Below are positions 24,771 to 56,280 of a stretch of DNA of 64,000 nucleotides, in pieces; position 1 is the stretch's first letter; the number at the start of each line of letters is the position of its first letter. A program made the position numbers and the translations under genes. Source of the DNA: Raillietiella orientalis (taxonomy: Eukaryota); assembly GCA_036172245.1 (NCBI GenBank), contig JAYWIR010000032.1, positions 62,001 through 126,000 on the forward strand. Reading direction: 5' to 3'. The notes below the pieces were generated by a model. It was not told where the DNA came from. It worked only from the letters and a program-made list of their open reading frames with translations, and ran no database searches.

Positions 24771-25366
24771 GATGCAAGTACACCCTCGGCAGGAGAGGAG
24801 CAATCTCCTCCCTGCCGCTGAGGCTCGACTTCATCGCGTTTTAAGTGTGCTGGGAAATTTGCGCCCCATGCGATTGAAGTGGAAAGCCCGCAGGGGTTAT
24901 TCACGGAAGTCGAGCAGCAAGAAGGCAAGTAGAGAATCCTACCTTGCCCTCGGACGCGATTGGCCGACTGAAGCAGCTGTTCGCAGAGCGCTTTTGATCG
25001 CAGGTGACTTCACCCTGTGCCTGCTTTGAGGTGCGCCGGATACACTGAACGACTGTGTCAACGAGTTGTGCGTAGAAATGCACACGTGCAACTATTTGAC
25101 CGGAGTTATAGCCATGGAACGCGGCATCGATCACGTGTTTATTGACCAGCACGTTTGCTCTTGCGTGGCCAGGCGCGGCAAGGTACTGTTAGAGGTTTCG
25201 GACCATGACCGGATCGTGTTCGAAGTCCATCCGCGCGACATGGGCACCCCGCGTAAGCGTGGCGTCTGCCAGAGGACTGGTTGAAGCTCCCGGACGCGGC
25301 ATAACATCTCCGCGCAACATTCGGTTCTTCAGGCTGCGGACGCTTCAGGACTGGGACCGCTTCAAG
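24771..25366 (+). mobile_element. Internally deleted L1/Tx1-like fragment (piece of ORF1 joined to APE endonuclease piece)
   Basis: FKCAGKFAPHAIEVESPQ is homologous to family B ORF1 (FKCAAKAASEAVGEESPQ); followed by RDWPTEAAVRRALLIAGDF, IDHVF, SDH, LRTLQDWDRFK. Confidence 0.85.
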
Positions 25367-25396
25367 GGGATCGAGAGGATCGGAGGGGGCGGCTTG

Positions 25397-27482
25397 TTAT
25401 CACCAGGGTGCGCCGGGGCGTTTATTATAAACTATCCGAGAACAGGGTTGTTGTACAAAGAGGAAAACAGGAGACGAAGGGGGTGGGATCCCCGACATGC
25501 AGGTCGGTATGCCGAAAGTCCGGAAGGGTAGGGAAGGGACCACAAATACACTACTATACAATATGGAAGAAAAATATGAAAGGCAGGGGACAGGGGTCTT
25601 TGGTGAGTCCGTTCCTTCCTTTCAAAACTGGCGATGAATGCCAGCGATCTCTCTCCTTACGCCCTTTAACAGATGGGCCCACTCGGCAGCGAACGACATA
25701 TTTGTGCAGGCTAATCCGGTGCGCTGACGAAAAATGGCAAGTTTCTCCAACTCTCGGTGGGCCTTGTCGATGGCGCGGGTGCAACACACCGTTGAAACGA
25801 CAGCACCTCAAGACAGGACGCCTGGCGTAAAGAAGCGGCGCATCAAGTCCCTCGCGGTGTCCCCTCGGTGCAGGAGAGTTGAGGCCAGCCTTCGTTAAGG
25901 TCCTAGAAGGGCACAGCAGTTCAGGAGCAGGTGCGGAAGGGTTTCCACTTCCCCGCACCGCTTCCAGTTTGGGGAGACAACTCCCTCGGATAAACGGTTC
26001 GTCCGCTGGTTGGAGTGAAAATCCCAATGGACCAGCATGATGACGTCCTGCTTCCACCAAAGGGGGAACACAAAATTGTTCTAACAGGAGTGAGGGACCA
26101 CAAGTTCTTCGGAGGGCACACTCAAGTGTTCGCTCCACCGAAGGAGTCCCTTCGGGATGTGGCGAGGCGTGGCGGCGTCTGCCACCTCGCAAGTCCTCCA
26201 GCCGCCAATAGTTCGCGTTGTTCCTGCAATGGTGCAGGCGACCCCCCATCTCGCCGGTTCGCGGCTTTCATCTCTTGCCCTGAGGGCTGACAATGCGTCG
26301 GCGAGCAGCGTGACGGCCAGGTGGGTCCACTACTCCTGGCTGTTGCACACCTCGTCCACCGTGCAATACGGGGACAGGTGATCGCAGCGAAGTTCCAAAG
26401 GAAAACATCCTGGTGCTTTGCCCAGTCATGCAACGGTTCCTGCCTTCAGGCTTGAAAGTTCGTTGGGTGGCCAAAGATCAATTCCTGGGCTTCCAGGAGC
26501 CGGTACAGCGGTTTCAAAGGGCATCCGAAGCTTCTCGTGGCGCGCTCCGTGTGCGGCCCCAGCGACAGAAGCCCATCGCTGCCTGTGCAGCGCCGCAAAA
26601 GCAGGCGAGCTGGATCGCACAACGAAGTGGACCAAAGGTTAAGCACAGGGCAACATCCGGAGCTGCACCTGTAGTTTGATTCTCTCCAGCGTGAGGATGT
26701 CCAATCCAGCATCCCGAAGTGGAGCCTCCAATTCTTTGAGGCGGATCCTGGATCTCGCAGGACCCCACAGAGCGTTCCTCAACAGGCTGTGCGCCTGGAG
26801 CGTCGCCGAGTAGGGGAGCGGGCAGACAAAAAGTAGGCGGCCCAAGAGGGGGGTAACTAAGGTGTTCCATATCGTAACCCGCTCCGGCAGGACGAACCTG
26901 CCATGGTGAAACGGGCTCAGGGAATTCGAAACCTTCCGAAGGCAGTGCGAACACACTTCCACTGGGCTGATGTTCCCCAACGGAACGCCCAGATATTGCA
27001 TGGATTCAGCGTTCGGAATCCCCAGACGGATCCAGTCGGACTGCTCCTCCCACGCCGCACCAACAGGTACGACCACGCTCCTGCTTAGGATTACGCTCAT
27101 GCCCGCATCCGAAAGAATCAGCTCGAAGAAATCCTCCAGACTGGACGTCGAGGTGGTCATGGGTAAGAAAAGAAGCAGGTCGTCAGCATAGGCCGTCACG
27201 GACGGCATTCCTGTACAAGAGCTTGGCAGGTTGGCCAGCGTCAGCCTGTACGCCCTGAGCACCAACTCAAAGAAGATGCTGAAAAGCAACTTGGTTAAGC
27301 TGTCGCCCTGCTTGATGCCCTGCCGCACCCAAACGCCGTACAGGTGGCAGCCGCTAAAAGAGACGCAAATCACCGCGTGGCGCCAGCAAGCGCGCAAATA
27401 CGCCACGAGGTGCACCGCAAGACCAAGGCGTTTCAGAAGCTGCAGCATAAGATCCTGATTTACGCAGTCGAACGCTTTGTGC
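25397..27482 (-). mobile_element. L1/Tx1-like element, family C copy 1: ORF2 from the RT KAFD motif to the 3' end, interrupted at KAFD by A1
   Basis: HKAFDCVNQ, GIKQGDSLTKLLF, YADD (~27.18 kb), YLGVP, zinc-finger region, T-rich 3'UTR, AATAAA (reverse complement of 25421-25426) and terminal hairpin. Confidence 0.93.
27468..27482 (+). other. Family A 15-nt target/TSD-like site (antisense of codons for HKAFD)
   Basis: tcgaacgctttgtgc, continuous with the C1 RT frame on the minus strand and directly followed by the A 5' end gctctagggcggacg. Confidence 0.85.
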
Positions 27483-27575
27483 GCTCTAGGGCGGACGTGT
27501 TTTCTCGGTGCTCCTCGTGCCAGGAAGTCTCCCCCAGTGCAAACGTCGTGTGGTTCGGTGGTCGATCAGGCAGCG

Positions 27576-29260
27576 ATGCCTGACGCGACCACCAGGGGTG
27601 GCCCGGGGACAGAGGCAACGCCGCTCCCAGAGGCGACGAAGAGCCAGCGGTCGGCGGCAACGTCGCCCCCAGAGGTGATGGAGGTGGGGGCATCCGCCCC
27701 CACAGAATCGGTCTCCCCTGCAGCGCGGGCAAGGAGCGCCGTGGTGTCGGCGCCATCGCCTGCAGCCGCGGCGGAATTGTCGGCCTATGTAGAGAAGGGG
27801 TACAACCCCTCATTGTTCTACAAGGTAGGCAATTTATATTCTTTAGAGAGCGCGCGCGCCTTCTCGAAGGGCATGCGCGCTCTCGATGTGAAAGAGAAGG
27901 AGCTGAGCGCTATGACCATCCGCAGCGGGAGTCAGTACGTTGAGGTCATCTGCAAACATGCAGAGATGGCACAACGACTGCTTAAAACCCCCGTTTTGAT
28001 AGAAACGCGCAGGCTCCTCCCCACTACAGCGGACCGCAACATGGTGGTCCACCTGTTAGGCGTCACCGCGCGAATGCGCAGAGAACAGGTTCCCGCCGCT
28101 TTGGAACAGTTCGGAACGGTCCACGCGCAATGGACGAAAGTAAGTCCTTTCGAGGACTACACGGGGCTGCAACCCGGCCTCACTGCTGCGCGCGTGACCG
28201 TTCGGGAAGGCTGCACTCTTCCCCACAAACTGGTGGTCGAAGGCGAAACCGTCGACCTCTGGTATGTGGGGAAGCCGAAATACTGTGGCTTCTGCAATAC
28301 GTCGGGCCACCTCAAAAAGAGGTGTCCCAATGTGCAGTGCCAAGTATGTGGCACAATGGGCCATACAAGGGAGGTGTGCCCAAAAGCATCAGTGCGGGTG
28401 GTTTCCAAGAGAAACCTTGATAAACGCGCCCGGCTTCTGCAGAAAAGGCTGGCGGCGAAAGCTGCCGCGAAGGCTGTGCCACCCGCGCCCAAGACCCAGG
28501 CCGCACCCGAGACCCCGGCGACCAACGCCGAAAAAGTTGAGAGAGCCGGTCAGGAGACTGAGTGCCAAGTGGCAACGGCAAAAAAATCAAAGAAGGAGAG
28601 GAGGATGGAAAACAAAATCGCCTACCAACAGAAGCAGAAAGAGCAGGGTAGCGCGATTATTAAGGATTGCAGCGTCGCTGTCGAACGCGTTCTCGATGTC
28701 GCCGAACGCTGCCAGAAAGAACTCGTTGCTACCGACGACCTCCCCTCTGTTGACTCTGTCAACAGCTAGGGGAGCAAGCCGACGGCGGCGTCCGTCATGG
28801 ACACCTCCATCGATGACTTAGCCTTCGCACGAGCCGCGGAGGAACTTGATGCCTCGTTGCAGCCAGAACCCTCAAAGGCTGGTAAGAAAGCCTTAAGGCG
28901 GCCGGCCTCCCCTCAGGAGTCCCCAACTACCGACTCCGAGGTGGACGCCGGAAGCGCAGCCTCCGTGTTCACGGCACCGCTCAAGAATTCTGTACGTAAG
29001 TCCACAAAGCCAAGGAAGCTCGTCTTTCCCGTCGAAGGGGAAGAGGTGGCTTCCGCAAGCGAGGGTGCCATGAGCGTGGGAAACTCTCGGGACCCATCGC
29101 CCGAGAGACTCTCACGCACTGACACGGAGGGATGGAGGGGATGGAGGGGGTGGAGGCCGAACAGGTGTCTCAGGTGCCTGAGAAGGCCGAAACCCCCATG
29201 GACATCCCGCCCGCCTTGCAAGAGGAGGGCTCCCCCACACCTTAATCTTCCAAGCAGTAA
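27576..29260 (+). pseudogene. A1 ORF1 (Gag-like nucleic-acid-binding protein, two CCHC knuckles)
   Basis: ATG 27576; CGFCNTSGHLKKRC and CQVCGTMGHTREVC; in-frame TAG at 28767-28769; frame continues, with a frameshifting ~10-nt duplication near 29130-29150, to TAA 29258-29260. Confidence 0.88.
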
Positions 29261-32200
29261 TGCAGCGAATCTCCTCCCGCCGTCGTCTGCGCATCGCCGT
29301 TTGGAACGTGAACGGCATGACAGACGCCGGCAGGAGACGAGACATGGCCGCCCTTCTGGAGTCCTACGACCTTGCGCTGCTGCAGAAGATCCACATGATC
29401 TCTGCAGAAAAAGCGCAAGAGATCGAACGAATCTCCGGAGGGCGGCTGTGGTACAGGTGTGGGAGAACGAAAAGTTGCGGTGTCGCCTACCTGCTTCGGA
29501 CAGCCGTCGAGGCCGCGGCTCGGGGCGTGCGGTTCGACGATCACGGTCGTGTCGGCCAGCTGACTCTCAGATGGTCCGACTCGATTGACCTGATCGTCAC
29601 GAACGTGTACGCACCGAGCGGCAAGGACCTGATGAACAGGAGGGCGAGGAAAGAGTTTTTCCTTGCCTTCCGGCGAGACTGGCTGACCGAAGCAGGCGTG
29701 CGGAATGCCCATCTGGTTGCAGGCGATTTCAACGTTCGCCTGAAACCAGATGGGCAGAATCCCGAGCGTGACCTGGGCAACGAGGTGTGCATCGCGGTGC
29801 ACACCTGTAATTGGTTGGTCAGTGCACCGATGATGGAAGACAGCATTGACCACGTGTTTCTTGACGAGCACCTGTGCCCTCGGGTGGGCAGGCGCGGCAA
29901 GTTACCGTGCGAGCAGTCCGACTATCGTCCGCTAGTCCTCGAGATTCAACCGCGCGACAGGGGCCCCCCCTCGTCAGCGTGGCGTCTCCCAGAGGACCGC
30001 CTGAAGCTCCCGGACGCGGCGGAACATCTCCACAGGTTCATGCGGAGCTTCAGGCTGCGGACACTCCAGGATTGAGACCGCTTCAAGCGGTCGGTCCAGG
30101 AGTTCTGCGACCAGTTCCCTCTGCACCGCCTACCTACGGATTTTGGGACCGGGGTCCGTAACGAACGAGCCTACCTCCAGGCCCGTCGTTACGCAAGAAC
30201 CCATGACATCCGCATACTGGCGGAATACAAAGCGGGAGCCGAGAGGCAAGCCTGGCAGTCTGGATCGGCCAGCTTACTTGACGATCAGGACGAGGAGCAC
30301 TAGGCAGCTGCCCAAATCCGCGGCCTGCTGCGAAGTTACTACTCCTCCCTGTATGCCAGGGCACCTCCGGAGAGGAACGTCTCACGACTCCTGCTTCCGG
30401 AAGGCGCTCCAGCGATCGGGGAGGAGCAGAGAAAGACCCTGGACGAGCCTTTCACGATGGACGAGATCCTCTCGGCCATCGGAAAGCTCAAAAGGCGAAA
30501 GGCTCCAGGGGAGAACGGCCTGCCCGCGGAGTTTTATCACACTTTCGCGGTTGAGCTTACCACTCTGGTACAGCAACTCACCTTGCTAATACGCGAAACA
30601 GGTGACGTTCCCGCCTCGTTTCGTTCGGCAAAGGTGCGGGTCCTCCCTAAAGGAGGAGATGTGAGGAGCATGAACAACTGGAGACCCATCACAATAGTGA
30701 ATGCGGACGCCAAGTTGCTGGCTAAGGTTTGGGCAGAGCGTCTGGGACGGGTTGCCAACATCTTCATCAGCCCGGAACAGACATATGCTGTTCCCGGGCG
30801 AAGCATGGACGCGAACCTGTTCCACGCTTCCATCTGGCTCGAGCTCCAACATGAAAGGAGCTTGGTGCGCAGCCGGAATTCCGGTGCGTGCGCCGGCAAG
30901 TGGTTGGATGGTCGGGTGGGGGACGGAGACCCTGCGGTCGCAATCGACTAGCGAAAAGCATTCGATTGCGTCGACCAGAATCTCCTTCTGGAGCTTCTGG
31001 AACGCCTGATCTTCCCTGCATCATTAGTGGCCTATCTGCGCTCCTGCTGGCGCGACGCACTCATCAATGTTACTTTCAGCGGGCAGACCGTGCACGGCGT
31101 GCCGGTGCGGCGTGGGATCCGGCAGGGAGACAACATGAGCCCCTTGCTCTTCAGTACCTACTTTGAGTTGATACTGAGAGCGTACAGGGGAACTCTGGCG
31201 CACCTGCCGCACGACTGTGCCGGTACGCCGGCCGTTTCAGCATACGCGGAAGACCTTCTGCTACTGCTCCCTATGTCCATCCCGGCTTCGGCGGTCGAGT
31301 AGTTCTTCGAACTGCTGCATCGGGGAAGCGTACTTACGGTGAACATTGCGAAGTCGTCCGTGATGCCAGTTGGTGCGGCGTGGGCAGGGCAGCAGGACTT
31401 GGTCCATTTGGAAATCTCCACGGTGAGGTACTACAAGTACCTTGGTCTGCCGATGGGGGACTACTCCCCTGCGGAAGCGTGGTCCGGCTGCCTCCATAAA
31501 GTAGAGACGGCGATCGGCCCGTTTCGAGGCGGCAGGTTTTTCCTGCCTGAACGGGCCGCGGTTTGGAACACGTTCGCGGCTTTTTTCCTCCGCTCCCTGC
31601 TTTTTGTTTGCCCCGTCACAGAGAGGATCAGAAAGCAGACTAAGGACCTCCTCCGTATCGCCCTTCGGGGCAACGGGAGGGTCCGAGTCCGCTTGAAGAA
31701 CTTGTGCGCTACTCGTCGGGATGGTGGTCCGGGCCTCCTGACGCTGGAGCGGCTGGAGCTTCAGCTCCAGTTCCGCTTGTAGGCACTCGTTCCAGAGTTC
31801 TGGTGCACCTGTTGTTGCGTCCCTGCACGTCTCCTACTCCAGCAAGCCACCGGCAAGACGGGACTGACGTCGTTTCTTGCAATCCGTCGCCGCGTCATCC
31901 GATGCGGACTCCAGCTACGGACTGTGGCTGCGCTGTATCGGAAAAACCCAGGATTGCTCACCTGTCGCCCGTTGAACTGTAGTGCCTGGTTGCAGGAAAC
32001 CATTCGAACGTGTGGACAGTTCGGCATGCAACTCTCCCAACAGGAACGAAGGTTCCTGTTTGGGGGTTACAGAACTTGCACGCTCCGCGAGATTCTGGAG
32101 GATCCAAAGAAGAAAGCGTGGGCAGGAAGAACCCCCTTCGCTGCTGCGCTGCCCTTTCTGATGGAAGATCTGGACAGAGATGTTGCGGCGAAGTGGGTGG

Positions 32201-32835
32201 TTACAGTAACAATCTCCGGAAAGGAGAAGAAGTTAGGAGAGTGAAAGACGGGCCAGTTAGCAGACGCTGCGACCCCGAGTACGCCTCCCAATGGACTTCT
32301 GCGCTGAAGCACGCTGCTCGATGTTCCCATTGAACATCTGAAGTGGCCCCCGGTGCTCATGACCACTTTCGCCCTCCCCTTAAAATGGCAGGAGTCGGCT
32401 CTCCTGTTGCAGCACTGTGGACTTCCCTGCAACGCCCGCCGACACCACTGGACCTGGGGAGCGGTGGACCCCAATTGCGTCAATTGTGGGGAACGGGAGT
32501 CCCTCCCCCACCTGCTAGTGGATTGTGTTGCCCTTTGACCTTTTTGGTTTCGCTTTGCAGCGGCCATCGGTATCCCCTGCGGCAACCCCAGAGACGCACT
32601 GAAAGCCCTCTTCGTTGCCGACGGCCTTCAGCCAGCGGCCTCGTTAGCAGCTTTGTGCTGCTTACGCGGGATCGTCACCGCTTGGAGCAAGGCTACGGGA
32701 GGACAACGCGACCAGGGTGCCATCCAGCCAGCCTCCCAGTTCCTGAGGTGGGCGTTTCGATGGCCCCACCTGGATCGAGGAATACAGAAGGAGCTTTCCG
32801 GCATCCTGCAAAGGATGCAACGGCCCCACCAGTAA
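29260..32835 (+). pseudogene. A1 ORF2 (APE endonuclease + reverse transcriptase + C-terminal zinc finger), 1192 codons in one frame with several nonsense mutations
   Basis: WNVNG, NVYAP, GDFN, IDHV; KAPG, NWRPIT, RKAFD, GIRQGDNMSPLLF, YAED (mutated YADD), YLG; CVNCGERESLPHLLVDC. All ORF-track pieces 29260/30457/31027/31339/31924/32353/32653 share one frame. Confidence 0.93.
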
Positions 32836-33060
32836 CTGTGATCCCTTCCCTTACCCTCCCAACTTTTTCTTTTTTTTTTTGTTTTGTTTTTCGTTTTTCC
32901 CCCTTCCCCCTGCTGCCGTGGTAAACCGTACCGGTCTGCGAACCGGTGAACCGGCAGGCTCTGTGTTTCTTCGTGCGTGGCTGGAGCAATGGTCTAGCCA
33001 CCGCACGTCTTTGTAAAAGTTTATTTTACAATAAACGCCCCGGCGAAATCCGGGTGAAAT

Positions 33061-33075
33061 TCGAACGCCTAGCGT
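33061..33075 (+). other. 15-nt TSD-like spacer between A1 and A2
   Basis: tcgaacgcctagcgt; 14/15 identical to the 15-mer on the other side of A2. Confidence 0.88.
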
Positions 33076-38589: not shown

Positions 38590-38604
38590 TCGAACGCCTT
38601 GCGT
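38590..38604 (+). other. 15-nt TSD-like spacer between A2 and A3 (antisense of codons for RKAFD)
   Basis: tcgaacgccttgcgt; reverse complement a cgc aag gcg ttc ga. Confidence 0.88.
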
Positions 38605-39802
38605 GCTCCAGGGTGGACGTGTTTTCTGGTTGCTCCTCGTGCCAGGAAGTCTGTCTCAGTGCAAGCGTCGTGTGGTTCGGTGGTCGATCAGGCAGCGATG
38701 CCTGAAGCGACCACCAGGGATGGCCAGGGGGCAGCGGAAACAACGCCCCCAGAGGCGATGGAGAGCAAGGGGGCGGCGGCAACGTCGCCCCCAGAGGCGA
38801 TGGAGGTGGATGCATTCGCCCCCACAGAATCGGTTCCCGCTGCAGCGGGGGCGTGGAATGCCGTTGTGTCGGCAACATCGCCTGCAGCCGCGGCGGAATT
38901 GTCGGCCTATGTAGAGAAGGGGTAAAACCCCTCACTGTTCTCCAAGGTAGGCAACCTTTACTCTTTAGAGAGCGCGCGCGCCTTCTCTAAGGGACTCCGC
39001 GCTCTCGATGTGAAAGAGGAGGACCCCAGCGCTATGACCTTTCGCAGCGGGGAACAGTACTTTGAGGTCATCTGCAAACAAGCAGAGCTGGCATAACGAC
39101 TGCTTAAATCTCCCGTTGTGATATGGACGCGCCGGCTTCTCCCTACTACGGCGGACCGTAGAATGGTGGTTTACCTGTTAGGCGGAACCGCGCAAATGCG
39201 CAAAGAACAGGTTCGCATTGCTCTAGAGCAATTTGCAACGGTCCACGCGCAGTGGACGAACGTTAGTCCTTTCGAGGACTACACAGGACTGCAACACGGT
39301 TTCACGGCTGCGCGCGTGACCGTTCGGGAAGGCTGCACTCTTCACCACAAACTGGTGGTCGAAGGCGAAACCGTCGACCTCTAGTATGTGGAGAAGCCGA
39401 AATACTGCGGCTTCTGCAATACGTCGTGCCACCTCGAAAAGAGGTGTCCCAACGTGCAGTGCCAAGTATCCGGCACATTGGGTCACACGAGGGAGGTGTG
39501 CGCAAAAGCAGCAGCGCAGGTTGTTTCCAAGAGAATCCTTAAAAACCCAGCCCGGCTTCTGAAGATAAGGCTTGCGGCGAAAGCTGCCGCGAAGGCTGTG
39601 TTTTCCGCGCCCAAGACCCAGGGCACACCCGAGACTCCGGCGACCAGCACCGAAAAAGTTGAAGTAGCCGTCCAGGAGAATGGGTTGCAATTGGCAACAG
39701 CAAAAAATTAAAGAAGGTGAGGAGTTCAGAAAAAAAGCTTGCGAACCGCCAGAAAAAACAGGAGGCAAGCAAGAAGATAGAAGAATGCAGCCTTGTCGTT
39801 CA
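38605..39802 (+). mobile_element. Family A copy 3, 5'UTR and most of ORF1, cut by the 3' end of C2
   Basis: Homologous to A1 27483-~28680; knuckle CGFCNTSCHLEKRC. Confidence 0.93.
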
Positions 39803-42262: not shown

Positions 42263-42277
42263 CTCTCGCGATCGCTA

Positions 42278-45200
42278 GGTTTCCCCAAGTCCCACAAGGG
42301 GTGGGGTAAGTTTATTTTTCTATAAAAATACAATAAATTTACATTCGCACTCTCATTCACTCAATACAAACATTTTGCACTTGGAGGTCCTTGGGTTCCA
42401 CTAGAGTTCTGCTTTTCAGGGGGGAATTCCAGCTTGATGTTCCCGGGCGTCGTCCTGGATCCTCTTCAGGATGAATTGGTACGTCCAGGCGTGGATCTTC
42501 CCGCAGTTCCTGATTGTGATTTGCCTCTTCAAGAGCCCTTGTAGAATCTCCAACGGTGTTGCACCTCTCCTGGCTTTCCTCATTTTCCACCACCGCACAA
42601 GTATGGCGGTGATGAAGAGGGCTCTGTCCGTCCTCACCATGGGATTGTAACAGGGAACATTACCATCTCCATGAAACAGCCGGCGAGGATCTCCATAACG
42701 GACTTGTTGGTAAGTCCTATGATCCTTTTCAGGATCAGCCAGATATGCAGCAATGTGGGACACGTCAAGACGTAATGTCTCGTGTTCGTGTCTCCACATG
42801 CTGCGCACTCTCTTTCTTCCTGTCTTCCGGAGAAGTGCTGTATGCGGGACCCACTTTGGATTCCTCCATGATAAAACATCAGGAGGTCGTCCTAAGTCCC
42901 CGGCGGTAGGTCACTCCTCCAGAGGGTCGTGCCGATCGTTAGCATGTTGATGCGATCGCTCCCGTAGCGGCCGGCGGCTTCTTCGAGGGTACTGGTGTCT
43001 CTTTCGTCCACCTTCATCAATCTGCGGAGGTTCATTTTCGTTAACCTCGACCACACGAAGTCGTTGTGGTTAATCCACACCTCGCGGATGTGATGGGTGA
43101 AACTCCCTTACATCATCTCTATGTACCGAAGTACACGAGAGTGATGTAGGTATCCTCCTCGGCGCCATTCCTAATTCCGTTGGAGGGTAACTCTAGACCC
43201 CTGGTGTATCCAGCTTCTCGTGTCCGGCTGGACAGGAAGAACCCAAGGGATCACCAGGATGGACTCGTCCTGCCAGAGTTCCCTACTTCTCGGCACGATC
43301 TTGATTTTGTGCCTTTGCACCAGACGTTGCTTCCTCGTCCAGGTTGCGTCGATTTTTTTCCATTCCCCTGCTTTGCTTAGCAGCGTACTCATCAGGTCTT
43401 TCGAGTTGCTCAACAACAACGCGTAGGCCCTGTGCGCCCATACGGCCAGTCATTCTAGTAAGTGGCAATGTCCAGGATGTGTCGCGTATCCATGATTTCT
43501 ATGGAGTGTGCAAGCGACTTCATCCCGGAACCGCCTTCTTCCCTGGGACGACACAGGGGTTTTAGTCGAACTCTTGGGCGATAGTGGCCCCACAGTGTTT
43601 TTCTCTGCAGCTTGTCGAACTCTCTCGTGGTGTCCTTGTCCATCCTCGCAAAGGCCTCCCGAAAGAGCACTTTTTGAAGGAGTACTCCGTTCCATATGTT
43701 GGCCTTTCGCTCCATTCCAAGGTCCGCTCAAGTGTACTTGGCTGCTTCCTTGGCCGTTTTCCCTAGGATCTCGAACCACGATAACTTCGACGCGGAGACG
43801 TCGCCAATGTGGACACCCAGGTGCTTGGCCTTGTCCACCGTTCGGAATCCTCTCCTTGCTAGAGCGGAGAGATCGAGGATTCCAACGGGCAAGAGCTGGC
43901 TTTTCTGGGCGTTAATCTTTAGACCCAGGCCTTTATCAATCAGGTCTAGCACATCCAGAAACGCTCGTTGATTTCTCTCTCCCTTGAAAAAGAAGAGTAG
44001 ATCATCAGCGTATGCCAGATGGGTAAGACGGTGGCCATCGATTGTTATGCCTTGCGGTCGTCCGCTCTTCTCGATAAAGGACGACAACGCCTCCATGTAG
44101 ATGACGAACAGCATCGGACTTAGCGAATCGCCCTGCCAGACTCCCCGTTCCATCCGGATTGCTGCCGTCTCCTTTCTGTTGAAGTTTTTTCGGCAGTACT
44201 GGTTTTTGATTACCACTCTCACGAAGTTGCTGAAGTGTTCCGGAAGTCATATCTTCTCCAGAACCTCCAGCAGCATCCCATGGTCGATGGAGTCGAAAGC
44301 CTTCTCCATGTCAGTGAACACCAGCGCCAGGTTCTCTCCGACGTATCGGCTGAGTCCAACGGTGGCCTGGGAACACTTGACATTGTCCGACATGTGAAGT
44401 CCAGAGACTGCACACGTTTGGTCCGGAGTGATGACCTTCGTCATGACCCTGCCTAAGCGGTTGGACCAGATCTTCGCCAACCACTTGGCATTGGAGTTCA
44501 GGATTGAGATTGGCCTTTATTCAGCCATTTGGGTTGGGTCGCCTCCTTTGGGCAACAATCTCATCCTACTCTTGTAGAAGGAATCAGGAAGTCTGCCTTC
44601 TTCACGGATGCAGAGGGTCAACTGGTAGAACAAGCGCAGGTAGCCATGCATGTACCGCTGATAGTGCGTTAGCGGTACACTGTCAGGGACCGCCGCCACA
44701 TCCTTGCGCAGTTGTCCAAAAGCCGTCTTCACCTCTTCTTCTAAGAATTCCTCCTCCAGTCTGTTCCGCTGGAGGTCGTCGGTCCTCTTCTCGAGATAGC
44801 TCAGAAAGGCTTGTTGACTAGAGCGACAGAGATGTTGTCGCCTGAAGTATTCCGTGTAATGCCTGTGACAGGCCTCCACGATATCATCGAACGACTTTCT
44901 CTCTTGACCGTCGTACTGGATGCAGAAGATATCTGTTGCTAGATTTCTCTTCTCCAGCACGCCGACTTCCTCTTTTATGTTCTTGAGGACGTACCGACTC
45001 TCGTTCTGATCGAAGTACTTCGAGAGTGAGCGATCTTGGATGTTCAGCTCCCGGTACGCCTCCTGCCTCAAGCGCCTATCCCCGAACTGCATGTTTGCAA
45101 ACAGTTGTATCCTGTGTTCCAAGCTGTCCCAGTCGGCGACTCTTTGGATTGTTGTTGCCATCTGAATCGTCTTCAGGAGAGCCTGATGTCCGGGATGGGT

Positions 45201-46530
45201 TTCGAACCAGGCGGGAATGCTGATGAGCGCCGCCCTGGTGCCTTGCCTCCGCCGAGGATTCTCCGTTCTTAGGGAAATCCGCACCAGGGGGTGATCGGAC
45301 ACCGTAGTCATAGTGTCGCGAAACCCTTGGATGCGATTCTTAAGTTCGGTGCTGTGTAGGACGTGATCGATCGGCTTGTGACTTGCTGTTCGCCACACCA
45401 GTCCGAACTCTTCGGATAGCCGCCGATACGCCGTCCTTCCTCTGGGGTCCTGGGAATGAGTGATCTCATCCAATATGTTGAGATCGCCAGCTACGATCAC
45501 GACGTCCTTGGGGGCGACCTTTTTACGGAGTGCTGCATGCAGCGTTTCCGCACAACGATGTTTCAGCCTGTGCGGTCCATACACGTTCACCAGGATGAGG
45601 TGAACAGTAGCGGACCAGGCCAATCGCACGCCGATGATTCGTCCGGGTTGCGGACAGAACACTTCCAGCATAGTGGGGGCCAAGTGATTCATGATTAGGA
45701 CCTCCACACCCTGCGTTTTCCGTTCTCCCTTGCTGACGAACATCTGCCCGTTGAATCGCCGTTCCATTTGCTGACTAATCTCGGAACCCATCTTGTGGGT
45801 CTCCTGCAGGCACACTATGTCTTTTTGTGCGATGGTCCGCACAATCCTTTTTCTTTTTCCCTGGTCGACCACAGCGTTTACATTCCAGGAGGCGATGTTC
45901 AGCCTCCTGGCGGTCGATAGGGAAGAGGCCATAAAAGAAGAAGACCTATTTCTTGGCCGTCCTGAACTTCTTCTGTTTGAGAGCGTGCTCTTCCAGACAA
46001 TAAAGAAGCAGCGGGCTTCTCGCTACCGGCGTCACTCTCGGCGTCAGCGGACGGGTGCTGCCTGGGACGACGCCGCCGCGAGCGCAACCCTCGACGTCGC
46101 CACCGTTGCCGCCGCGGGCGGCACCCTTGGCATCGCCACTGCAGGCACGACCTCCCCCGCTGCGGTCACGATCCTCGGCGTCGCCGCCGCGGGCACGACC
46201 TCCGCCGTCGTTGCCGCGGGCTCGACGCTTGGCATTGCCGCCTCCGACGCAGCAAAGCTCGCCGCGAGCGCGATCCTCGGCGTGCCTGCCACCGCCTCGC
46301 CGTTGCCGCACGTTACCCCTATGGCTTTCATGGGGGACGACGGTCTATCCACTCCTCCTCCAGGCGCCTGCATCCTGGCAGCTGGTCTTGCTGCAAGGGA
46401 CGACTGCAGGTCTTCCGCCGTGATCTCCTCGGCTCTTCTTTTGTAGTTTCGTCTGGAAACTTCCCCTCTCCGGGCACACACGAGCACAATTAGCTGATTA
46501 AGTTGTTGTGCGCACAAAACTTTGAGCCGC
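42278..46530 (-). mobile_element. Family D copy 2: near-complete ORF2, ORF1 internally deleted
   Basis: Open 471-aa endonuclease/linker ORF 44517-45932 (SWNVNA, LQETH, NVYGP, GDLN, IDHV, SDH), then frameshifted RT (EKAFD, GVWQGDSLSPMLF, YADD) and zinc finger ECAACGDTNTRHYVLTC. 5' region ~92% identical to D1 but lacks the knuckle-coding part. Confidence 0.94.
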
Positions 46531-49500
46531 AAAGCAAGTTCGCCGACTCGGCAGGAGAGGAGCATTCTCTCGACAGCCGCGAATGCTGCGCCTTCGCCGC
46601 CTTTTAAGTGTGCTGCGAAAGCTGCGAGCGAGGCAGTTGGGGAGGAAAGCCCGCAAGTGTCCCTCAAGAAAGTCGAGGAGCGCTCCGAGGGAACAGATGG
46701 TGGGTGGAAGGTTGTGGAGAAAGGGAGAAAAACAAAATCTCCCAAAAATTCTCCGCAACCGCACCGCAAGAGCCTGTCTAAGGTAAGAAACAGTGGCGCG
46801 ATGAAGAAGACTCGCGCGAGGGTTCCCGTTGCCAATGCGGAGGCTACCGCCGCGGTCGCAAGTAGCGCGAAAGTTGCCATCTCCAGGGACGATGTTCCTG
46901 TGATCGCGAAAAAGGAAGTGTCCGGGATTCCATCCGCGAACACCTCCGAATCGACACGACAGGTGAGTCGCGAAGCTACCGCGCTGCATGCAGACTCAGA
47001 AACGGAGTCTGAGATCACCGCCGCACGTCGGATCACCCGCACGGAAGCCGTAGCGCGCCAGGCTAAGGTCCTGAGGCGCGCAGCGCAGGCCACGAAGGAA
47101 CGAGAGCTCACCGCGGACAGTCAAACGACGCTACCCGGAGACGAGCACTCGAATTCGTGCAGCACAAGGGAGGACGGTGGCGACCGTCATCACCAGCCAG
47201 CAGTGTTGCTTACCGTGCGCTCGTTGGTAAAAGCGGGCAAAAAGCCGATAACTTCCCAGCATTAATGCGGGGAATAGCTTCTTCTCGTTGCCTGTCCGTA
47301 GCGTGGACGAACTTGAACGGACTGCAGAACGACGAAAAGAGGCGGTTAGTAGCCAACGCCCTGCGCCCCTTCGACCTCGTGCTCCTGCAGGAGATTCACG
47401 TAATCTCCGACGTGCAGGCTGCGGAAGTCGAGGATCGCTCAGGCGGAAAGATACTTTGGTGGTGCGGCGACGCGCGAACGTGCGGCGTCGCGTTCCTCGT
47501 AAGACGAAAAATGGCGGAAGCGGTGCGTGGTGTTCGCTTCGATGACGACGGACGGATAGGCCAGCTTGTCATCAAGAGGTCCGAGTCCATCGATCTCGTC
47601 GTTACGAACGTCTACGCGCCAAGTGGCTCGGGCTACTTCGAAGATAGAATTGCGCTATTCGAGGAAGTAAAATGCCACTGGCTCAACAACTCCGTATCCC
47701 AAGTGGTGCACCTCGTCGCAGGGGACTTAAACGTCCACCTGCTCCACGACGAATGGAGCTGCCCGAGGAAGCGAACGTCGGCCAGCGAGATGTGCGCGTC
47801 AGTACGCGCTCTCAATTTGATGGTCGGCGTACCTGAGATGGGAAGGTCACTGGATCACATCTTCGTCGATGACAACCTGCACCCTCGTGTGACAAGAAAA
47901 GGAAGATTGTCGTCCGCACTTTCTGATCATCACAGGTAGGAGTTGGAGCTCCTTCTGTCAGGCATGGGGCCTTCGTTAAAGAACTGGAGGATGCCTGCGG
48001 ACTGCCTTAGCCATCCGGAGGCGGCGGATCATCTCCGTCAGTACCTCCGGACTTTCGTCATCCGCGAACTCGCAGACTGGGATCATTTAAAGAGGTCCGC
48101 GAGTTCTGCGAACGGTTTCCCTTGAGGCGGCTTCCGTGAGGCTTTGGAGAAGGGGTCACTAACAGCAGGACTTTCTTGACGGCGCGCACTTTTTCTGGAC
48201 GCGCTGATGTCAGCCGACTTGCAGAATACAAGGCGGTAGCCGAGCGCCAGGTCTGGCGGTTTGGAGCATCTTGCTTGTACGACAAAAAAGGCTGGAGTGC
48301 TCGAATCCAGCCGGTATTCGCCGCATCGTAATTACTCCTCGCTATACGCAAAAGCGCCTACGGAAAATATCTTTTCGGAGGTACTTCTATCCCAGGATGC
48401 TCCCGTTGTTAGCGAAGAGGAACGCGCATGTCTCGACGAGTGCTTCACAGCAGATGAAATTTCCTCCGCTATCGCGGGACTCAAGAGAAGAAATGCACCA
48501 GGTGAGGACGGGCTACTTGAAAAGTTCTATCAGAGCTTTTCGACGGAACTTGTCCCTCTGGTGCTTAGGCTCTCCTCGTTGATGAGAATCTCGGGATATG
48601 GCCCCAATTCCTTCCTCTCAGCGAGGGTGCGTCTCCTGCTGAAAGGTGGAGACGCACGCCATCTCAACAACTGGCGTCCGATCACCCTATTGAACTCGGA
48701 AGTCAAGTTGTTCTCTAAGCTGTAAGTTTCGCGGCTAGGGAGGATCGCGCAGTCCTTGGTAAGCCCGGAACAGACTTACGCTGTTCCCGGGCGGACCACG
48801 GACGCAAACCTCCTGTTTGCCCACACCTGGATGCAGCTGCAGCAGCGTGTAGCGCAGCAAAGCCGATCCGTGTCCAAGGCCGCTGCCAAAGGCACACGGT
48901 ATCGACAGAAGCGGCAGGAGGGTACGCCTGGTGCCTTCGCGGTCACAGTCGACATGCACAAGGCGTTCGATTGCGTGGAACAAGGGCTCTTATCAGAGCT
49001 CTTAGAACGCCTGGGTCTCCTAGCGCGACTCCTGAAGTACTTACGCGCTTCCTGGCACCACGGGCTAACCTGCATTTCTTTTAGCGACTGCCACTTGTAC
49101 GGTATTCCCGTGCGCAGGGTCATCAAACAGGGTAACAGCTCAAGCCCGTTGCTCTTCAGCATCTTCTTCGGGCTGGTGCTAAGGGCGTACAGGCTGACGC
49201 TGGAGTACGTGCCTAGCTCCTGTCCGGGTTCGCCTGCCGTGGCTGTCTATGCAGACGACCTGCTTCTTCTGCTCCCCATGTCCACCCCGGCGGCCAGTGT
49301 CGAAGATTTCTTCGAACTGATTCGTCAGGGAGCGGGCGTAAGTGTGAACCGGAAGAAGAGCGTGGTCGTACCTGTAGGAGCGTCGTCGGAGGGGCAGTCC
49401 ATCTGGATCCGTCTGGGGATCCCCACAGCAGGGTTTTTCAAGTACCTTGGAGTTCCGCTGGGCGACCTCAGTTCTGCCTAGCCGTGGTTGGACTGCCTTC

Positions 49501-51185
49501 AACAGGCAGAGTTGGCAGCCAGCCCGTTCATTAACGGCAAGTTCACCTTGCCGGAACGGGCGGCTATTTGGAACACCTTCGTGGCCTCCCTCCTCCGACC
49601 CCTCTTTTTTGTGTTGGATCCTCCCTACGCGGCCAAATAGCGGGCAAAACGCCTGCTGTGGAACGCACTCTGGAGTCCGGGGCGATCCAGGATCCGCCCG
49701 AAAGACCTCGCGGCTCCACGTCGGGATGCTGGTCTTGGCATCCTTAGGATGGAGAGAATCGAACTGCAAGTGCAGTTCCGGATGCTCGCACTGTGTGCTG
49801 AGCTATGGATTCCCCCCCTGTGTGCGCCCGCGCGCATCCTTCTAAGGAGGTGTGCAGCCAGTGAAGGACTTCTTTCCTTGGTGCCTGACATGCGTCACAG
49901 GAAACAGGGATTTGGCTATCCTCTGAGCTAAATCGCCTCCCTATTGGAAGCCAATGCATGGATTTCCTTCTGCCCGATGAACTACAATGATTGGCGGCAG
50001 AAATCCATTGATTCTTAAGCTGTATCCTTAGGAATGAGCCGTGAAGATCTCCGCCCCCTGCGTCGATTTCAACCTTGGTTCCTCCAAGTTGTCATGCAGG
50101 ACGAGGTGGAGATTTTCTCCCTGGCCGCCACGCCCCTCGCCGAAGCACTGTCTGCACTCCAGGATCGAGGTGACAGTAGCCAGCAGGCGAAGTGGGAGTT
50201 TTCTTGCACCATTGCAAGAAGAACAAAACCAGTTGGCGAATGGGCCACGAACGAGCTTGCTGATGCCGCCACTCCTCGTGCAACACCAAAGGGATTACTT
50301 CGGTGGGGAGAAGCACTAGGTGTTGCCCCCGAGGAACTTACAATTTCTCTTTGGAGTTTAAACGGTTCGGCGTTTCCCCTTGCATGGAAGCAAGACGTCT
50401 TGCTTTTCTTGCACTGGGGCTTGCGGTATAACGATCAACGACACCGAGTTTCCGGTAGGGTGGCTTCTCCCTACTGTGCCCAGTGGGGGGCGACGGAGTC
50501 GTTCCCGCACCTTGTTATGCACTGCGGTGCACTCCAGGAACTCTTGCGGAGGCTAGCATTAGCTCTCTTGATTCCAGGGGACACCGCTCGATAACTGCTG
50601 CGACGGTTCTTCCAGCCTCAAGGACTTTCAATGACTGCGACGATTTCCACTGTTGGTTGCATCCGCGCCATCGTCACGTTCCGAGAAGTGCTGGAGAATA
50701 CTGTACAGCAATGTTGTGTCACCAGGAAGGCAGCCGACTTTATTAGGTCGGCAGCTCGGTGGCGACACTTATGGGAAGACACAACGGAGCAACTAACCGG
50801 TATCCATCGCCGGATGAGAAACAGCTTAGAACGACGAACCCGGTGATACGCCCTCGTTTTATTTTTAATTGATTTTTTTGTTTTCGCATCCTTTTCCCTA
50901 TACGCCTTGCAGTGGTTTTAATGCTGAATCTTTTGAATTTCGCGGTGACTGCAGAGCGTCACCAAAGTTTCCTGGCCCACTGCTCCAGTTTGAAATTTTG
51001 TTTCTTTTTTTTTTTTTTTTTTTCTTTTTGTTTTTGGACTCCCTTCAGTCGTCCGTGTTCTTCCGTTTAACTGGCCTGCGTGACGGTGGTGAATGTTCGA
51101 TGCATATCTACATAGTCGTGGGCTGGTAAAAACTGCTTCTAGCTCGCTTATATCAATAAACGTCCCGGCGTGACCGGGTAAAAAA
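46531..51185 (+). mobile_element. L1/Tx1-like element family B: ORF1 C-terminal part, full ORF2 (decayed), 3' end
   Basis: ORF1 frame to TAA 47263-47265 overlapping ORF2 ATG 47265; WTNLNG, LQEIH, NVYAP, GDLN, SDH, HKAFD (48957-48971), YADD; ORF2 stop ~50846; AATAAA at ~51155 plus CCCGG-CGTGA-CCGGG hairpin and short A tail. Confidence 0.94.
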
Positions 51186-54100
51186 TTTTAACATACGCCT
51201 GAAACCACATGGGCCGAATTACGCGCGGGACCTGGTCAACGAGGTGTGCACGGCGGTGCACAGTTGTAATTTGTTGGCCAGTGTACCAGGGATGGAGGAC
51301 AACATCGATCACGTTTTCCTTGACGAGCACCTGTGCACTCGTGTGAGCACGCGCTGCAAGTTTCCGTGCGAGTTGTCCGACCATTGACCAATCGTGGTTG
51401 AAATCCATCGGCGCGACAGATGCCCCCCCTCGTCAGCGTTGCGTTTGACAGGGGACTGGCTGAAGCTCCCGGACGCGGCGGAACATCTCACCACGTATGT
51501 ACGGAGCTTCAGGATGCAGACACTCCAGGATTGGAACCACTTCAAACGGTCGGTACAGGAGTTCTGCGACCAGTTCCCTCTGCATTGCCTACCTGCGGGA
51601 TTTGGGGACGGGATAAGTAACGAATCTGCAGGCTCGCCGTTACGCCAGGACTCCCGACATTCGCAGGCTAACGAAATACAAAGCGGTAGCCTAGAGGCAA
51701 TCCTGGAATTCGGGATCGCTCAGCTTGCTGGACGATCAGGGCCAGGAGCATTCGGCACCCGCTCAGATCCGCGGTCTGCTGCGGAGTTTTTACTCCTCCC
51801 TGTACGCTAGAACGCCTACCGAGCGGGATTTCTCACGACTCCTGCTTCTAAAAGTCGCTCTTGCGATCGGGGAAGAGGATAAAAAGTTCCTAGACGTGCC
51901 TTTTACGATGGGCGAGATCATCTGGGCCATCGGAATGCTCAAGAGGCGCAAGGCTCCAGGGGAGGACGGACTGTCCGCGAAGTTTCATCGAACTTTCACG
52001 ACTGAGCTAATCCTCCTGGTACATCAACTCACCTTGCTGATACGCGAGACAGGTGACGTTCCCGCCTCGTTTCGTTCGGCAAAGGTGCGGCTTATCCCTT
52101 GAGAGGAGATCTGAGGAGCATGAAGAACTGGCGTCCCATCACAATAGTGAATGAGGATGCCAAGTTGATAGCTAAGGTTTGGGCTGAGCGCTTAAGACGG
52201 GCTGCAAACGCCTTCATCAGCCCGGAACAGACGTATGCTGTTACGGGGCGAAGCATGGAGGCGAACCTGTTCCACGCTTCCACCTGGCTCAAGCTTCAAC
52301 ACAAAAGGGGCTCGATGCGCATTGGGAATTCCGGTGAGTCTGTCAGCCATGCGACGGATGGTCGGATGGGGCAGGGAGCACTTGAGGTCGCTGTTGACTT
52401 GCGTAAAGCATTCCACAGCGTCGACCAGAATCTTCTGCTGGAGCTTTTGGAACGCTTGGGTTTTGCGGCCTCATTATTGGTCTATCTGCTCTTTAGCTGG
52501 CGCGATTCGCCAATCAATCTTACTTTCACGGCGTGCCGGTGCGATGTGGGATACGTCAGGGAGCCAGTTTGAGCCCCTTGCTTTTCAGTACCTACTTTGA
52601 GTTGGTACTGAGAGCGTACAGGGAAACTCTGACGCACCTGCCGCACGAATGCGCCGGAACGCCGGCGGTTTCGGTTTATGCGGACGACCTTCTGCTACTG
52701 CTCCCTATGTCCAACCCGACTTCGGCGGTCGAGGAGTTCTTCGACCTGCTGCATCGGGGAACCGGACTTACGGTGAACAGGGCGAAGTCGTCCGTGATGC
52801 CAGTTGGTGCGGCTTGCACAGGGCAGCAGGACTGGGTCCGTTTTGGGATCCCCACGGTGGGGTACTTCAAGTACCTTGGTGTGCCGTTTGTGGACTACTT
52901 CCCTGCGGAAGCTTGGTCCGGTTGCCTTGAAAAAGTAGAGACGGCTATGGGCCCGTTCTGAGGCGGCAGGTTTTTCCTGCCTGAACGGACCATGGTTGGG
53001 CACATGTTCGCGGCTCCTCTCCTCCGTTCCCTTCTTTTTGTTTGCTTCCCCACAGAGAGGATAAAAAAGCGGACGAAGGACGTCCTCCGTATCGCCCTTT
53101 GGGGCAACGGGAGGACCCGAGTCCGCATAAAGAACTTGTGCGCTCCCCGTTGGGACGGTGGTCTCGGCCTCCTGACATTGGACCGGCTGGGGCTGCAGCT
53201 TTAGTTCCGGATTTTGACACTTGTGCCGGAGTTATGGTGCACCTGTTGGTTCGTCCCTGCACGTCTCCTACTTCAGCAAGACATTGGCAAGACGGGACTG
53301 ACTTGTTTTCTTGCACTTCTTCGCCGCGTCAACCGATGGGGACTGCAGCTACGGTGGGTGTCTGCTCTGGCAAGGAAAAATCAAGGATGGATCACCTGTC
53401 TCTTCGCGAACGGTAGTGCCTGGTTGCAGGAAAGCGTTCGCACGTGGAAACAGTTCGGCATGCAACGCTCTCAACAGAAACAAAGGTTCCTGTTTGGGGG
53501 TTACAGAAGTTGCACGCTTCGTGAGATCCTGGAGGATCCTAAGAAGAGAGCGTTGTAAGGAAGAACCCCTTCTCGCTGCTGCGCTGGACTCCCTAATGGA
53601 ACATCAGGACAGCGATGTTGCGGCGAAGTGGAAGTTTACAATAAAAATTTCCGGGAAGGAGAAGAAGCAGAGAGAGTGGAAGACGGGCCAGCTAACAGAT
53701 GCTGCGACCCCGAGTACGCCTCCGAATGGACTTCTTCGCTGGGGAGCGCTGCCTGATGTTCCGATTCAACATCTGAAGTGGCCCCCGGTTCTTATGAACA
53801 CTTCCACCCTTTCATTAAAATGGGAGAAGTCGGCATTCCTGTTGCAGCACTGGGGACTCCTTTGCAACGTCAGTCGACACCAATGGAGCTGGGGAGCGGT
53901 GGACCCCAATTGTGTAAGGTGCGGGGAACGGGAGTCCCTCCCCCACCTGCTATTGGATTGTGTTGCCCTTCGGCCCCTTTGGTTCCGCTTTGCCGCGGCC
54001 ATCGGTATCTCTTGCGGCAATCCCAGGGATGCACTAAAAGCCTTCTTCGTTGCCGATGCCCTTCGGCCAGCGTCCTTGTTACCAGCCTTGTGCTGCCTTC

Positions 54101-54490
54101 GTAGGATCGTCGCCGCATGGAGCACTGCAACGGGAGGACCAAGCGATCAGGTTGCCATCCAGTGCGCCTCTCGATTCCTGAGGAGGGCGTCGCGGTGGCC
54201 TTACCTGGATGTTCACATCAAGCAAGAGCTTGCCTGCATCCTAAGGGGGATGCTGCGGCCCCAGCAGCATCAGTGATCCCTTCCCGTTTCCTCCCACCCT
54301 TTGTTTCTTTTTGTTCATGTTTTTGTTTTTCCGCTTTCCCCTGCTGCCGTTGGACCGTACCGGTCTAGGAACCGGTGCATTCACAGGCTCCGTGGTTCTT
54401 CGCTTGTGGCTGGTGCATTGCTGCAGCCATTAATAATTTCATTATAAAGTTTATTTCCCAATAAACGACCCAGAGAAAAAAGGGTGAAAA
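51186..54490 (+). mobile_element. Family A copy 4: ORF2 from the endonuclease GDFN motif to the 3' end
   Basis: Starts (F)N.RLKP, homologous to A1 GDFNVRLKP; GIRQGASLSPLLF, YADD, CVRCGERESLPHLLLDC; A-type 3'UTR with AATAAA at 54460-54465. Confidence 0.93.
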
Positions 54491-54535
54491 TCGAAAGCTT
54501 TACGCCTTTGAATTTCGTAGTCGAATGCTTTATGC
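54491..54535 (+). other. Two 15-nt KAFD-antisense sites separated by 15 nt
   Basis: tcgaaagctttacgc ctttgaatttcgtag tcgaatgctttatgc; the minus strand reads HKAFDYEIQRRKAFD. Confidence 0.85.
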
Positions 54536-54692
54536 GCTCCAGAGCGGACGTGTTTTCTCGGTGCTGCTTTTGCCGGGAAGTCTCCATAAGTGCTAGGGTC
54601 GCGTGGTTCGTTGGTCGTTGAGGCTGTGATGCCTGAGACGACCACCTGAGAAGGCCAGAGGGCAGCGGCACGCGGCCATCAGAGGCGATTGC
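54536..54692 (+). mobile_element. Family A copy 5, 5' stub (5'UTR and start of ORF1)
   Basis: gctccagagcggacgtgttttctcggtgct... gatgcctgagacgaccacc, homologous to the A1 5' end. Confidence 0.88.
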
Positions 54693-56215: not shown

Positions 56216-56280
56216 AATCTTGCCTTCCTGGAACTACACCACTAAACACGAGCGAGTCAGGAGCGCTTAAAGAACACATC

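Follow-up and report, generated by a model that had tools for sequence, protein, structure and literature searches.

Antisense (H/R)KAFD sites at the borders of a LINE family in Raillietiella orientalis: probable sequence-specific insertion, founded in the reverse transcriptase gene of a related element

The stretch of DNA analysed here (64,000 nucleotides of Raillietiella orientalis, contig JAYWIR010000032.1, positions 62,001 to 126,000 of the forward strand; hereafter the window) contains, between approximately 24.9 and 56.5 kb, a nest of degenerate long interspersed nuclear elements (LINEs) carrying an apurinic/apyrimidinic endonuclease (APE) and a reverse transcriptase (RT), which are recognised by Pfam matches to Exo_endo_phos and RVT_1. 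The G+C content of the nest is 53-60%, versus 38-46% in the stretch of 56-64 kb on its right. One family of these APE and RT LINEs, called here family A, is present in five copies, A1 to A5, which lie head-to-tail in two arrays according to the blastn comparison of A1 with the window. The locus raises a specific question: Why does every terminus of family A adjoin the same 15-nucleotide sequence, TCGAANGCNTNNNGN, the reverse complement of which corresponds to the (H/R)KAFD codons of RT? The answer that we favour, with moderate confidence, is that A is a sequence-specific LINE that duplicates 15 bp of an antisense (H/R)KAFD site upon insertion, and that it was founded at this locus within the RT gene of a related LINE.

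The evidence begins with the borders, which are precise to the base at the four 5' ends and the three 3' ends that are present, distributed over five sites. The first array opens with A1 (27483..33060, plus strand), a full-length element of 5578 bp with a first open reading frame (ORF1), APE, an RT whose RKAFD lies at 30952, and a 3' untranslated region (UTR) that is structured. It continues with A2 (33076(33081)..38589, plus strand), also full-length and 87.0% identical to A1 by blastn, and with A3 (38605..39799, plus strand), the 5' 1.2 kb of a copy interrupted by the 3' end of another LINE, C2; the blastn piece of A3, 38605-39724, is 86.7% identical to A1, and local alignment extends it to 39799. 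The second array comprises A4 (51185..54490, plus strand), which covers A positions 2244-5577 up to the 3' end with 81.5% identity to A1 (blastn), and A5 (54536..54688, plus strand), the first 154 nt of a copy, 78.6% identical to A1 and cut by the 3' end of LINE F. The two termini of A are unlike each other (5' GCTCCAGGG..., 3' ...AATAAACGCCCCGGCGAAATCCGGGTGAAA(A/T)) and have no terminal repeats; all four 5' ends start with GCT(C/G)(C/T)AG, and all three 3' ends finish with ...AATAAACG(C/A)CC...GGGTGAAA(A/T).

The five border sites can be followed from left to right. T0 (27468..27482, TCGAACGCTTTGTGC) reads HKAFD in antisense and is both the left border of A1 and, on the minus strand, a set of native codons of the LINE C1; T1 (33061..33075, TCGAACGCCTAGCGT), between A1 and A2, reads R*AFE and thus contains a stop; T2 (38590..38604, TCGAACGCCTTGCGT), between A2 and A3, reads RKAFD and differs from T1 at one position, the two forming direct repeats around A2 that are 14/15 identical. 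In the second array, T3 (54491..54505, TCGAAAGCTTTACGC; antisense RKAFD) directly follows the 3' end of A4, and T4 (54521..54535, TCGAATGCTTTATGC; antisense HKAFD) directly precedes the 5' end of A5. The pattern TCGAANGCNTNNNG occurs eight times in the window against 0.85 expected, a number reached in 0 of 100 shuffles; five of these matches are the A borders, and three fall on RT motifs, namely those of A1 and A2 (RKAFD, plus strand) and of the LINE B (HKAFD).

To what sequence, then, does the leftmost copy adjoin? A minus-strand ORF at 26642-27565 passes directly from antisense A1 sequence into ...HKAFDCVNQDLMLQLLKRLG..., and its frame runs through T0 into the RT of C1, reading ...RPRA followed by HKAFDCVNQDLMLQLL... 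C1 itself (25397..27482, minus strand) is the 3' part of a related LINE matched by Pfam RVT_1; it spans the RT from HKAFD to a 3' end with AATAAA and a stem-loop, and has T0 as its 5' limit. After T0, its RT shares 52.7% amino acid (aa) identity with the RT of A from the homologous RKAFD onward (A positions 3473-4297), and 54.9% with P0006, an intact homologue described below, from residue 230. T0 is located where A, B, C2 and P0006 have their homologous KAFD, and the nucleotide alignments of C1 to B and to C2 extend up to 27482 and 27479, respectively. Because HKAFD is in frame, the RT that follows is homologous and the alignments end at these points, T0 is the KAFD site of C1 itself, and C1 ends there. 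A sequence-only reading of this DNA had already claimed the continuity of T0 with the RT frame of C1, together with a 15-mer at every A terminus, a 14/15 direct repeat around A2 and unequal flanks of A1. All of this is borne out, the border holding for seven of seven termini with exactly the 15-mers that it gave; its statement that their reverse complements encode (H/R)KAFD is correct for T0, T2, T3 and T4 but not for T1.

A comparable situation may exist in the second array, where the order between A4 and A5 is T3, a spacer of 15 nt (54506..54520, CTTTGAATTTCGTAG) and T4, with the antisense reading HKAFDYEIQRRKAFD. The spacer resembles the C1 sequence to the left of T0, with 9/15 identical positions (P=0.004) and 9/12 among the nearest ones, versus 7/15 for C2 and B and 6/15 for A1 and for D2, a more distant LINE; moreover, the blastn alignment of A1 with A5 (27456-27636 to 54509-54688, 79%) goes 12 nt past the 15-mer. 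A second host junction is hinted at by this RT-like spacer beside T4. On the simplest reading, transcription of the A5 RNA would have begun within a C-like RT, about 30 nt upstream, and the RNA would have been inserted at T3; the 30-nt 5' flank formed by the spacer and T4 suggests that the parent of A5, too, was located in an RT of the C type, with transcription coming in from upstream.

The related LINEs of the same nest provide an internal control. The 3' flanks that were read for four non-A elements are unlike the 15-mer and unlike one another: B meets A4 with its 3' A-run, at A position 2244 (TTTTAACATACGCC), while C1 meets the A-like fragment E (CAAGCCGCC), C2 meets A3 at approximately A position 1197 (ACGACAAGGCTGC) and F meets A5 at position 154 (CGCCTCTGATGG), each with its 3' end. 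Among the elements with 3' junctions read, a constant border is confined to A.

These observations can be combined into a mechanism. The target would be approximately 15 bp, the antisense strand of the (H/R)-K-A-F-D codons, which lie just downstream of a catalytic aspartate of RT (in D..KAFD). The endonuclease of A would nick the sense strand of the host LINE just after ...TTCGA, reverse transcription would be primed on the 3' end of the A RNA (...GGGTGAAA(A/T)), and a second nick 15 bp off would generate a 15-bp duplication, with the complete site kept on both sides of the new copy. Later A copies could re-use either regenerated site, thereby producing head-to-tail arrays with one 15-mer between units, and the first array would have been founded at the KAFD site of C1, a related LINE on the opposite strand, splitting its RT gene there. 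What we infer in this scheme is where the nicks fall, that the endonuclease determines the site and that the arrays formed by re-insertion.

Whether the recurrent 15-mer bears on specificity is decided by the independence of the A copies, which we evaluated from selection and lesions. The ratio of nonsynonymous to synonymous divergence (dN/dS) was computed by the Nei-Gojobori method (NG86) on the reading frame of A1, which the intact homologue P0006 validates; the two shifted frames served as controls. For ORF1 (approximately 310-330 codons) the ratio is 0.43 between A1 and A2 (bootstrap 95% 0.29-0.63), 0.52 between A1 and A3 (0.36-0.75) and 0.55 between A2 and A3 (0.38-0.79), versus 0.90-1.08 in shifted frames; for the RT (approximately 590 codons) it is 0.62, 0.51 and 0.54 for the pairs A1-A2, A1-A4 and A2-A4, versus 0.81-1.27 in shifted frames; and for APE it is 0.47-0.50 in the pairs A1-A4 and A2-A4. 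In the 1.8-kb RT alignment, A1 has four in-frame stops, A2 three frameshifting gaps and seven stops in the A1 frame, and A4 two frameshifting gaps and three stops; no stop or frameshifting gap in this alignment is common to any of the three. This implies that array neighbours diverged in part under purifying selection, while their lineages were active, and that each copy started out intact. Since dN/dS lies below the shifted-frame controls and no disabling mutation is common, the analysis of sequences supports the view that the array units are separate retrotranspositions, and not local duplicates.

The same data bear on the notion that A inserted once and without specificity into C1, duplicating 15 bp, and that the unit of A plus 15-mer was then amplified locally by unequal exchange or segmental duplication, the KAFD codons being coincidental. 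We consider this unlikely, for dN/dS between array members is below 1 beside shifted-frame values near 1, their lesions have none in common, and the first dimer would require an exchange between two repeats of 15 bp. Additionally, in the public run X1 (see below) 36 of 294 contigs are 95-99% like A1, versus 87% for the neighbours of A1, a weak argument as the run may represent the same locus of another strain. Amplification would nevertheless agree with the presence of all 15-mers in two arrays of one nest, with differences among them that fit decay from one sequence, and with the likeness between the left flanks of A5 and A1 in the 79% alignment cited above, as expected of a duplicated junction; the expansion of dimers by unequal exchange is a known process, described in passages of PMC5932611.

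Improbable to a similar degree is a history in which the 15-mer came from the own environment of A, as a target or mimic borne at the ends of the arrays or as an extension of the RNA on its 5' or 3' side, while C1 was a later, 5'-truncated insertion whose cDNA annealed via its own KAFD region to the leftmost 15-mer, with no insertion of A into C1. Truncation at the 5' end with homology-assisted joining is usual for LINEs, and A5 indicates that an upstream flank of 30 nt can be brought along by A RNAs. The positions that distinguish T0 from T1 and T2, namely 9, 13 and 15, are exactly those at which it has the base of C2 or B, as repair favouring the cDNA of C1 would give; such differences can be accounted for by mutation at a later time, by ectopic recombination of two A copies with each other, or by a truncated C1 cDNA joining a pre-existing 15-mer. 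Some R2 families do carry target-like sequence within their 3' UTR, according to passages of PMC5035012. The cost of this history is an annealing over 15 nt, far longer than the usual microhomology, the landing of C1 beside the array and, as the 3' junction of C1 in E is 2.1 kb away, an additional deletion; even so, A would still be specific for the antisense (H/R)KAFD site, the history being altered and not the target. Two further origins of the inverted arrangement were rejected: twin priming, since the piece in inverted orientation is from another family and carries a 3' end of its own, and template switching at the RNA's 5' end, which would yield a sense chimera and not an antisense one. 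Finally, it is most improbable that the arrays and borders are repeat mis-joins of the assembly, or a chance resemblance, because units that differ by 13% and have private stops and indels are not collapsed or duplicated reads, the borders are base-precise at all seven termini and no shuffle attains the observed motif count.

Returning to the specific insertion of A into the antisense (H/R)KAFD site, several facts weigh against it. An extended host flank is found at T0 only, no site in the window is flanked by the two halves of a single RT gene interrupted at KAFD, and all five 15-mers lie within two arrays of one 30-kb LINE nest. The flanks of A1, T0 and T1, differ at 4/15 positions (11/15 identical). 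The estimates of selection have their own weaknesses, for NG86 ignores transition bias, of which the shifted frames are the sole control; in the APE of A1 and A2 dN/dS is 0.92, without signal, which makes the selection signal uneven; and the RT differences between A1 and A2, 75/63/86 by codon position, are not significantly uneven by a hand chi-square. At least five sites matching the core TCGAANGCNTT are empty in the window, namely the own sites of A1 and A2 and those of B, C2 and D2, although empty sites of this kind are expected for any multicopy target and hence uninformative. Dispersed copies of A, moreover, were obtained from none of the searches of the run, proteins, metagenomes, viruses and prokaryotes.

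Another such difficulty resides in the variation of the 15-mers, which differ pairwise at 1-6 of 15 positions, the variable ones being 6, 9, 11, 12, 13 and 15. Four of these six fall on the five wobble positions, a marginal excess (hypergeometric P=0.047), and most of the changes are C/T or G/A transitions, of which several lie at CpG; at position 13, Arg and His are interchanged by CGC to CAC. About ten changes to a single ancestral site would be enough to yield the entire variation, which is of the same order as the 13-20% divergence of A, and decay from one or two founding sites accounts for the 15-mers as well as many host families would. The sequence-only reading had the variable positions right, but the wobble excess on which it relied is this marginal one, which fits CpG and transition decay; its observation of a matching and unoccupied site in B is accurate. 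As for its central proposal, that A inserts specifically into the RT motif of other LINEs, the antisense KAFD site of 15 bp and one direct host junction remain, but insertion into different LINE families is no more than plausible, one or two founding sites being sufficient. The wider idea of a hyperparasitic LINE, the endonuclease of which would read the (H/R)KAFD codons, tolerate synonymous variation and home in antisense into several RT families, possibly including its own, is therefore tentative, and we hold it to be somewhat doubtful. The roles in competition among LINEs and as a source of antisense RNA that the sequence-only reading also envisaged are speculative.

The search for further copies provided the following picture. 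In the public run X1 (0.11 of sampled words), 294 contigs have at least 80% likeness to A1, 11 of them at 99% or more, 36 at 95-99%, 82 at 90-95% and 165 below 90%, which shows that LINEs of the A type are multicopy in a sequenced organism (80-99% likeness). The eight pieces listed from this run are 201-366 nt long, and among the loose ends and joints listed for it none is at 27483 or 33060. At position 9 of T0 (window 27476), the three run X1 contigs that cover it all have C instead of T, the state of T1, T2 and B; these contigs may come from this locus in a different strain or from other junctions. A word-based search with the junction peptide (antisense A 5' end plus HKAFD; residues 1-45 of P0001) gave no match among proteins of 169-539 aa, and a profile of three junction peptides found, among 1.84 billion representatives, a single match without KAFD, P0043. 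This protein of 143 aa is ruled out as a junction protein, being a repeat protein with LEEPRDVCTGG three times and no KAFD. Its resemblance to what the A 5' end encodes in antisense (TEPHDVCTGG) may be due to chance or to a distant repeat from a similar 5' UTR. A metagenome scan for the pattern of the A 5' end returned 17 loci, none with further similarity in blastn to 20-57 kb or in tblastx to A1, and they were rejected as chance matches; P0006 found no locus in viral contigs and one 26%-identical locus in genome contigs of prokaryotes.

What kind of element is A? In A1, the Exo_endo_phos domain (29182-30072; Pfam, E 3.4e-9) precedes RVT_1 (30304-31299), an order found also in B and D2, and sub-threshold matches indicate a CCHC knuckle in ORF1 and a zf-RVT in the C-terminal region. 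When compared with solved structures, P0006 matches chains of human L1 ORF2p with E values of 7e-40 to 5e-39, and R2 proteins with 7e-17 or weaker. Because APE is N-terminal to RT, the RT is nearer to L1 than to R2, the 3' end is A-rich without terminal repeats and the direct repeats are of 15 bp, family A classifies by its sequence features as an APE-type non-LTR retrotransposon of the L1 superfamily. P0006, the sole close relative found, is an uninterrupted RT of 619 aa from a JGI contig of 2870 bp, 72% identical to the RT of A1 and containing VAVDLRKAFDCVDQ; the family that it shares with A may be active in some sampled organism. Named proteins match at approximately 30% identity and are L1-like proteins of fish, frog, tick and plant. 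Among Atlas clusters, the nearest carries the label Eukaryota, with Bacillariophyta (diatom) as the commonest, and a cluster automatically named 'Transposon TX1 ...' appears at rank 22 with a score of 0.88, below the 0.9 mark, as the sole lead towards a possible place in the Tx1 clade.

The remaining elements of the nest were placed by tblastx in A coordinates. From left to right, E (24912..25396, plus strand) is an A-like LINE fragment covering A positions of about 2149-2633, 70% identical to A1 and A2 by blastn and cut on its right side by the 3' end of C1. C2 (39800..42252, minus strand), a LINE of the C family corresponding to A positions of about 3095-5200, lies antisense inside A3, with its KAFD site at 41855-41869 (TCGAACGCTTTGCAT) unoccupied. 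D2 (43458..46681, approximate limits, minus strand) is an APE and RT LINE with about 31% aa identity to P0006 and an unoccupied EKAFD site at 44293-44307. B (47253..51185, plus strand, the left coordinate not being a determined 5' limit) is a related LINE with 52% aa identity to P0006 and its unoccupied HKAFD site at 48956-48970, and F (54689..56234, minus strand) is the 3' part of a related LINE, A positions of about 4039-5483, antisense inside A5. A3 and A4 were also considered as two parts of a single element whose absent 1 kb would lie at 42.2-43.6 kb; this was rejected, no similarity being found there. Besides those of A, six nested LINE-in-LINE junctions occur in 24912-56234, in which C1, C2, F, D1 and D2 are antisense, and B sense, to the A-like element that they adjoin; their insertion points are all different, in numbers too small for a test. 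To the left of the nest, the segment 10500-24300 has a G+C content of 51-58%, many ORFs of 110-330 aa on both strands and a single sub-threshold APE match (22171-22689), and it probably holds further decayed elements, D1 among others. Rfam has no match at gathering score in the window; one sub-threshold snoRNA match is present at the 5' end of A (27440-27900), and no ribozyme. The four stops in the RT region of A1 (30274-32106) are all TAG, those of A2 and A4 being mixed; this probably reflects C-to-T or G-to-A decay.

Family A and the related families also have their 3' architecture in common, AATAAACGYCCCGGCG..CCGGGT plus an A-rich end. The 3' ends of A, B, C and F combine AATAAACG with a short hairpin (CCCGG..CCGGG) and a tail rich in A; they are located at 33030-33060, 51155-51185 and 54460-54490 on the plus strand, and at 25397-25426, 39800-39829 and 54689-54730 on the minus strand. 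The last 116 nt of the A1 3' UTR together with T1 fold with z = -4.25. A 3' recognition structure common to A, B, C and F is suggested by this architecture, despite an RT identity of only about 52-55%.

Site-specific LINEs are known for genes of rRNA, snRNA and tRNA, for microsatellites and telomeres, and for a few DNA transposons. Passages of PMC4494074, in which Tx1 is described as an animal clade, report that Tx1 (Tx1L of Xenopus laevis) inserts into the piggyBac-type Tx1D and that the short interspersed element SINEU-3 inserts into Mariner-N4_AMi; passages of PMC6719617 treat the crocodilian Tx1/SINEU-3 system and the targeting of one transposable element by another as a recognised strategy. 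As far as these passages describe them, such systems resemble A in having an APE LINE, or its SINE partner, with a defined site inside another multicopy transposable element, but the targets of Tx1L and SINEU-3 are non-coding or non-autonomous DNA transposons, whereas the site of A is, in antisense, an RT motif under protein constraint that belongs to related autonomous LINEs. The closest parallel for the arrays is R1 of Drosophila, a sequence-specific APE LINE for 28S rDNA, which in passages of PMC5932611 forms head-to-tail tandem arrays by repeated insertion into the regenerated duplication (double insertion), a known route to such arrays, with units separated by one 33-nt duplication of the rDNA target; R1 differs from A, on the same description, in its rRNA-gene target, its clade and its near-identical array units, versus 13% among those of A. 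Keno, Mutsu, Kibi, Koshi and Utopia, which are specific for snRNA or rRNA genes or microsatellites according to passages of PMC4640811 and PMC4494074, land safely, like A, in a conserved sequence present in many copies, but that sequence belongs to host RNA genes or simple repeats as described there, in contrast to the coding sequence of another retrotransposon. No LINE targeting an RT coding motif is described in the open-access literature searched, Repbase Reports, Dfam and subscription journals lying outside this scope; A is probably an element of a known kind that has a new class of target.

In functional terms, the nearest analogy lies outside retrotransposons. Homing endonuclease genes and inteins target the codons of conserved catalytic motifs, and their sites, like that of A, are hard to mutate away as they encode essential motifs; homing proceeds in their case by double-strand breaks, in contrast to the target-primed reverse transcription proposed for A, whose tolerance of wobble changes is likewise a proposal. 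If the wider, hyperparasitic reading is true, A would possess a multicopy landing site unable to mutate away, each insertion inactivating the targeted element, and its APE endonuclease would have a long, definable recognition site, a property for which such enzymes are of interest in targeted insertion. The arrays themselves would offer a clean example of how arrays are built by repeated insertion into a regenerated target duplication, the route that we have proposed for them. On the wider reading, family A would exemplify the logic of homing endonucleases, with an immutable coding motif as target, arising in a retrotransposon, and would occupy a new niche: that of a transposon living inside its relatives and disabling them.

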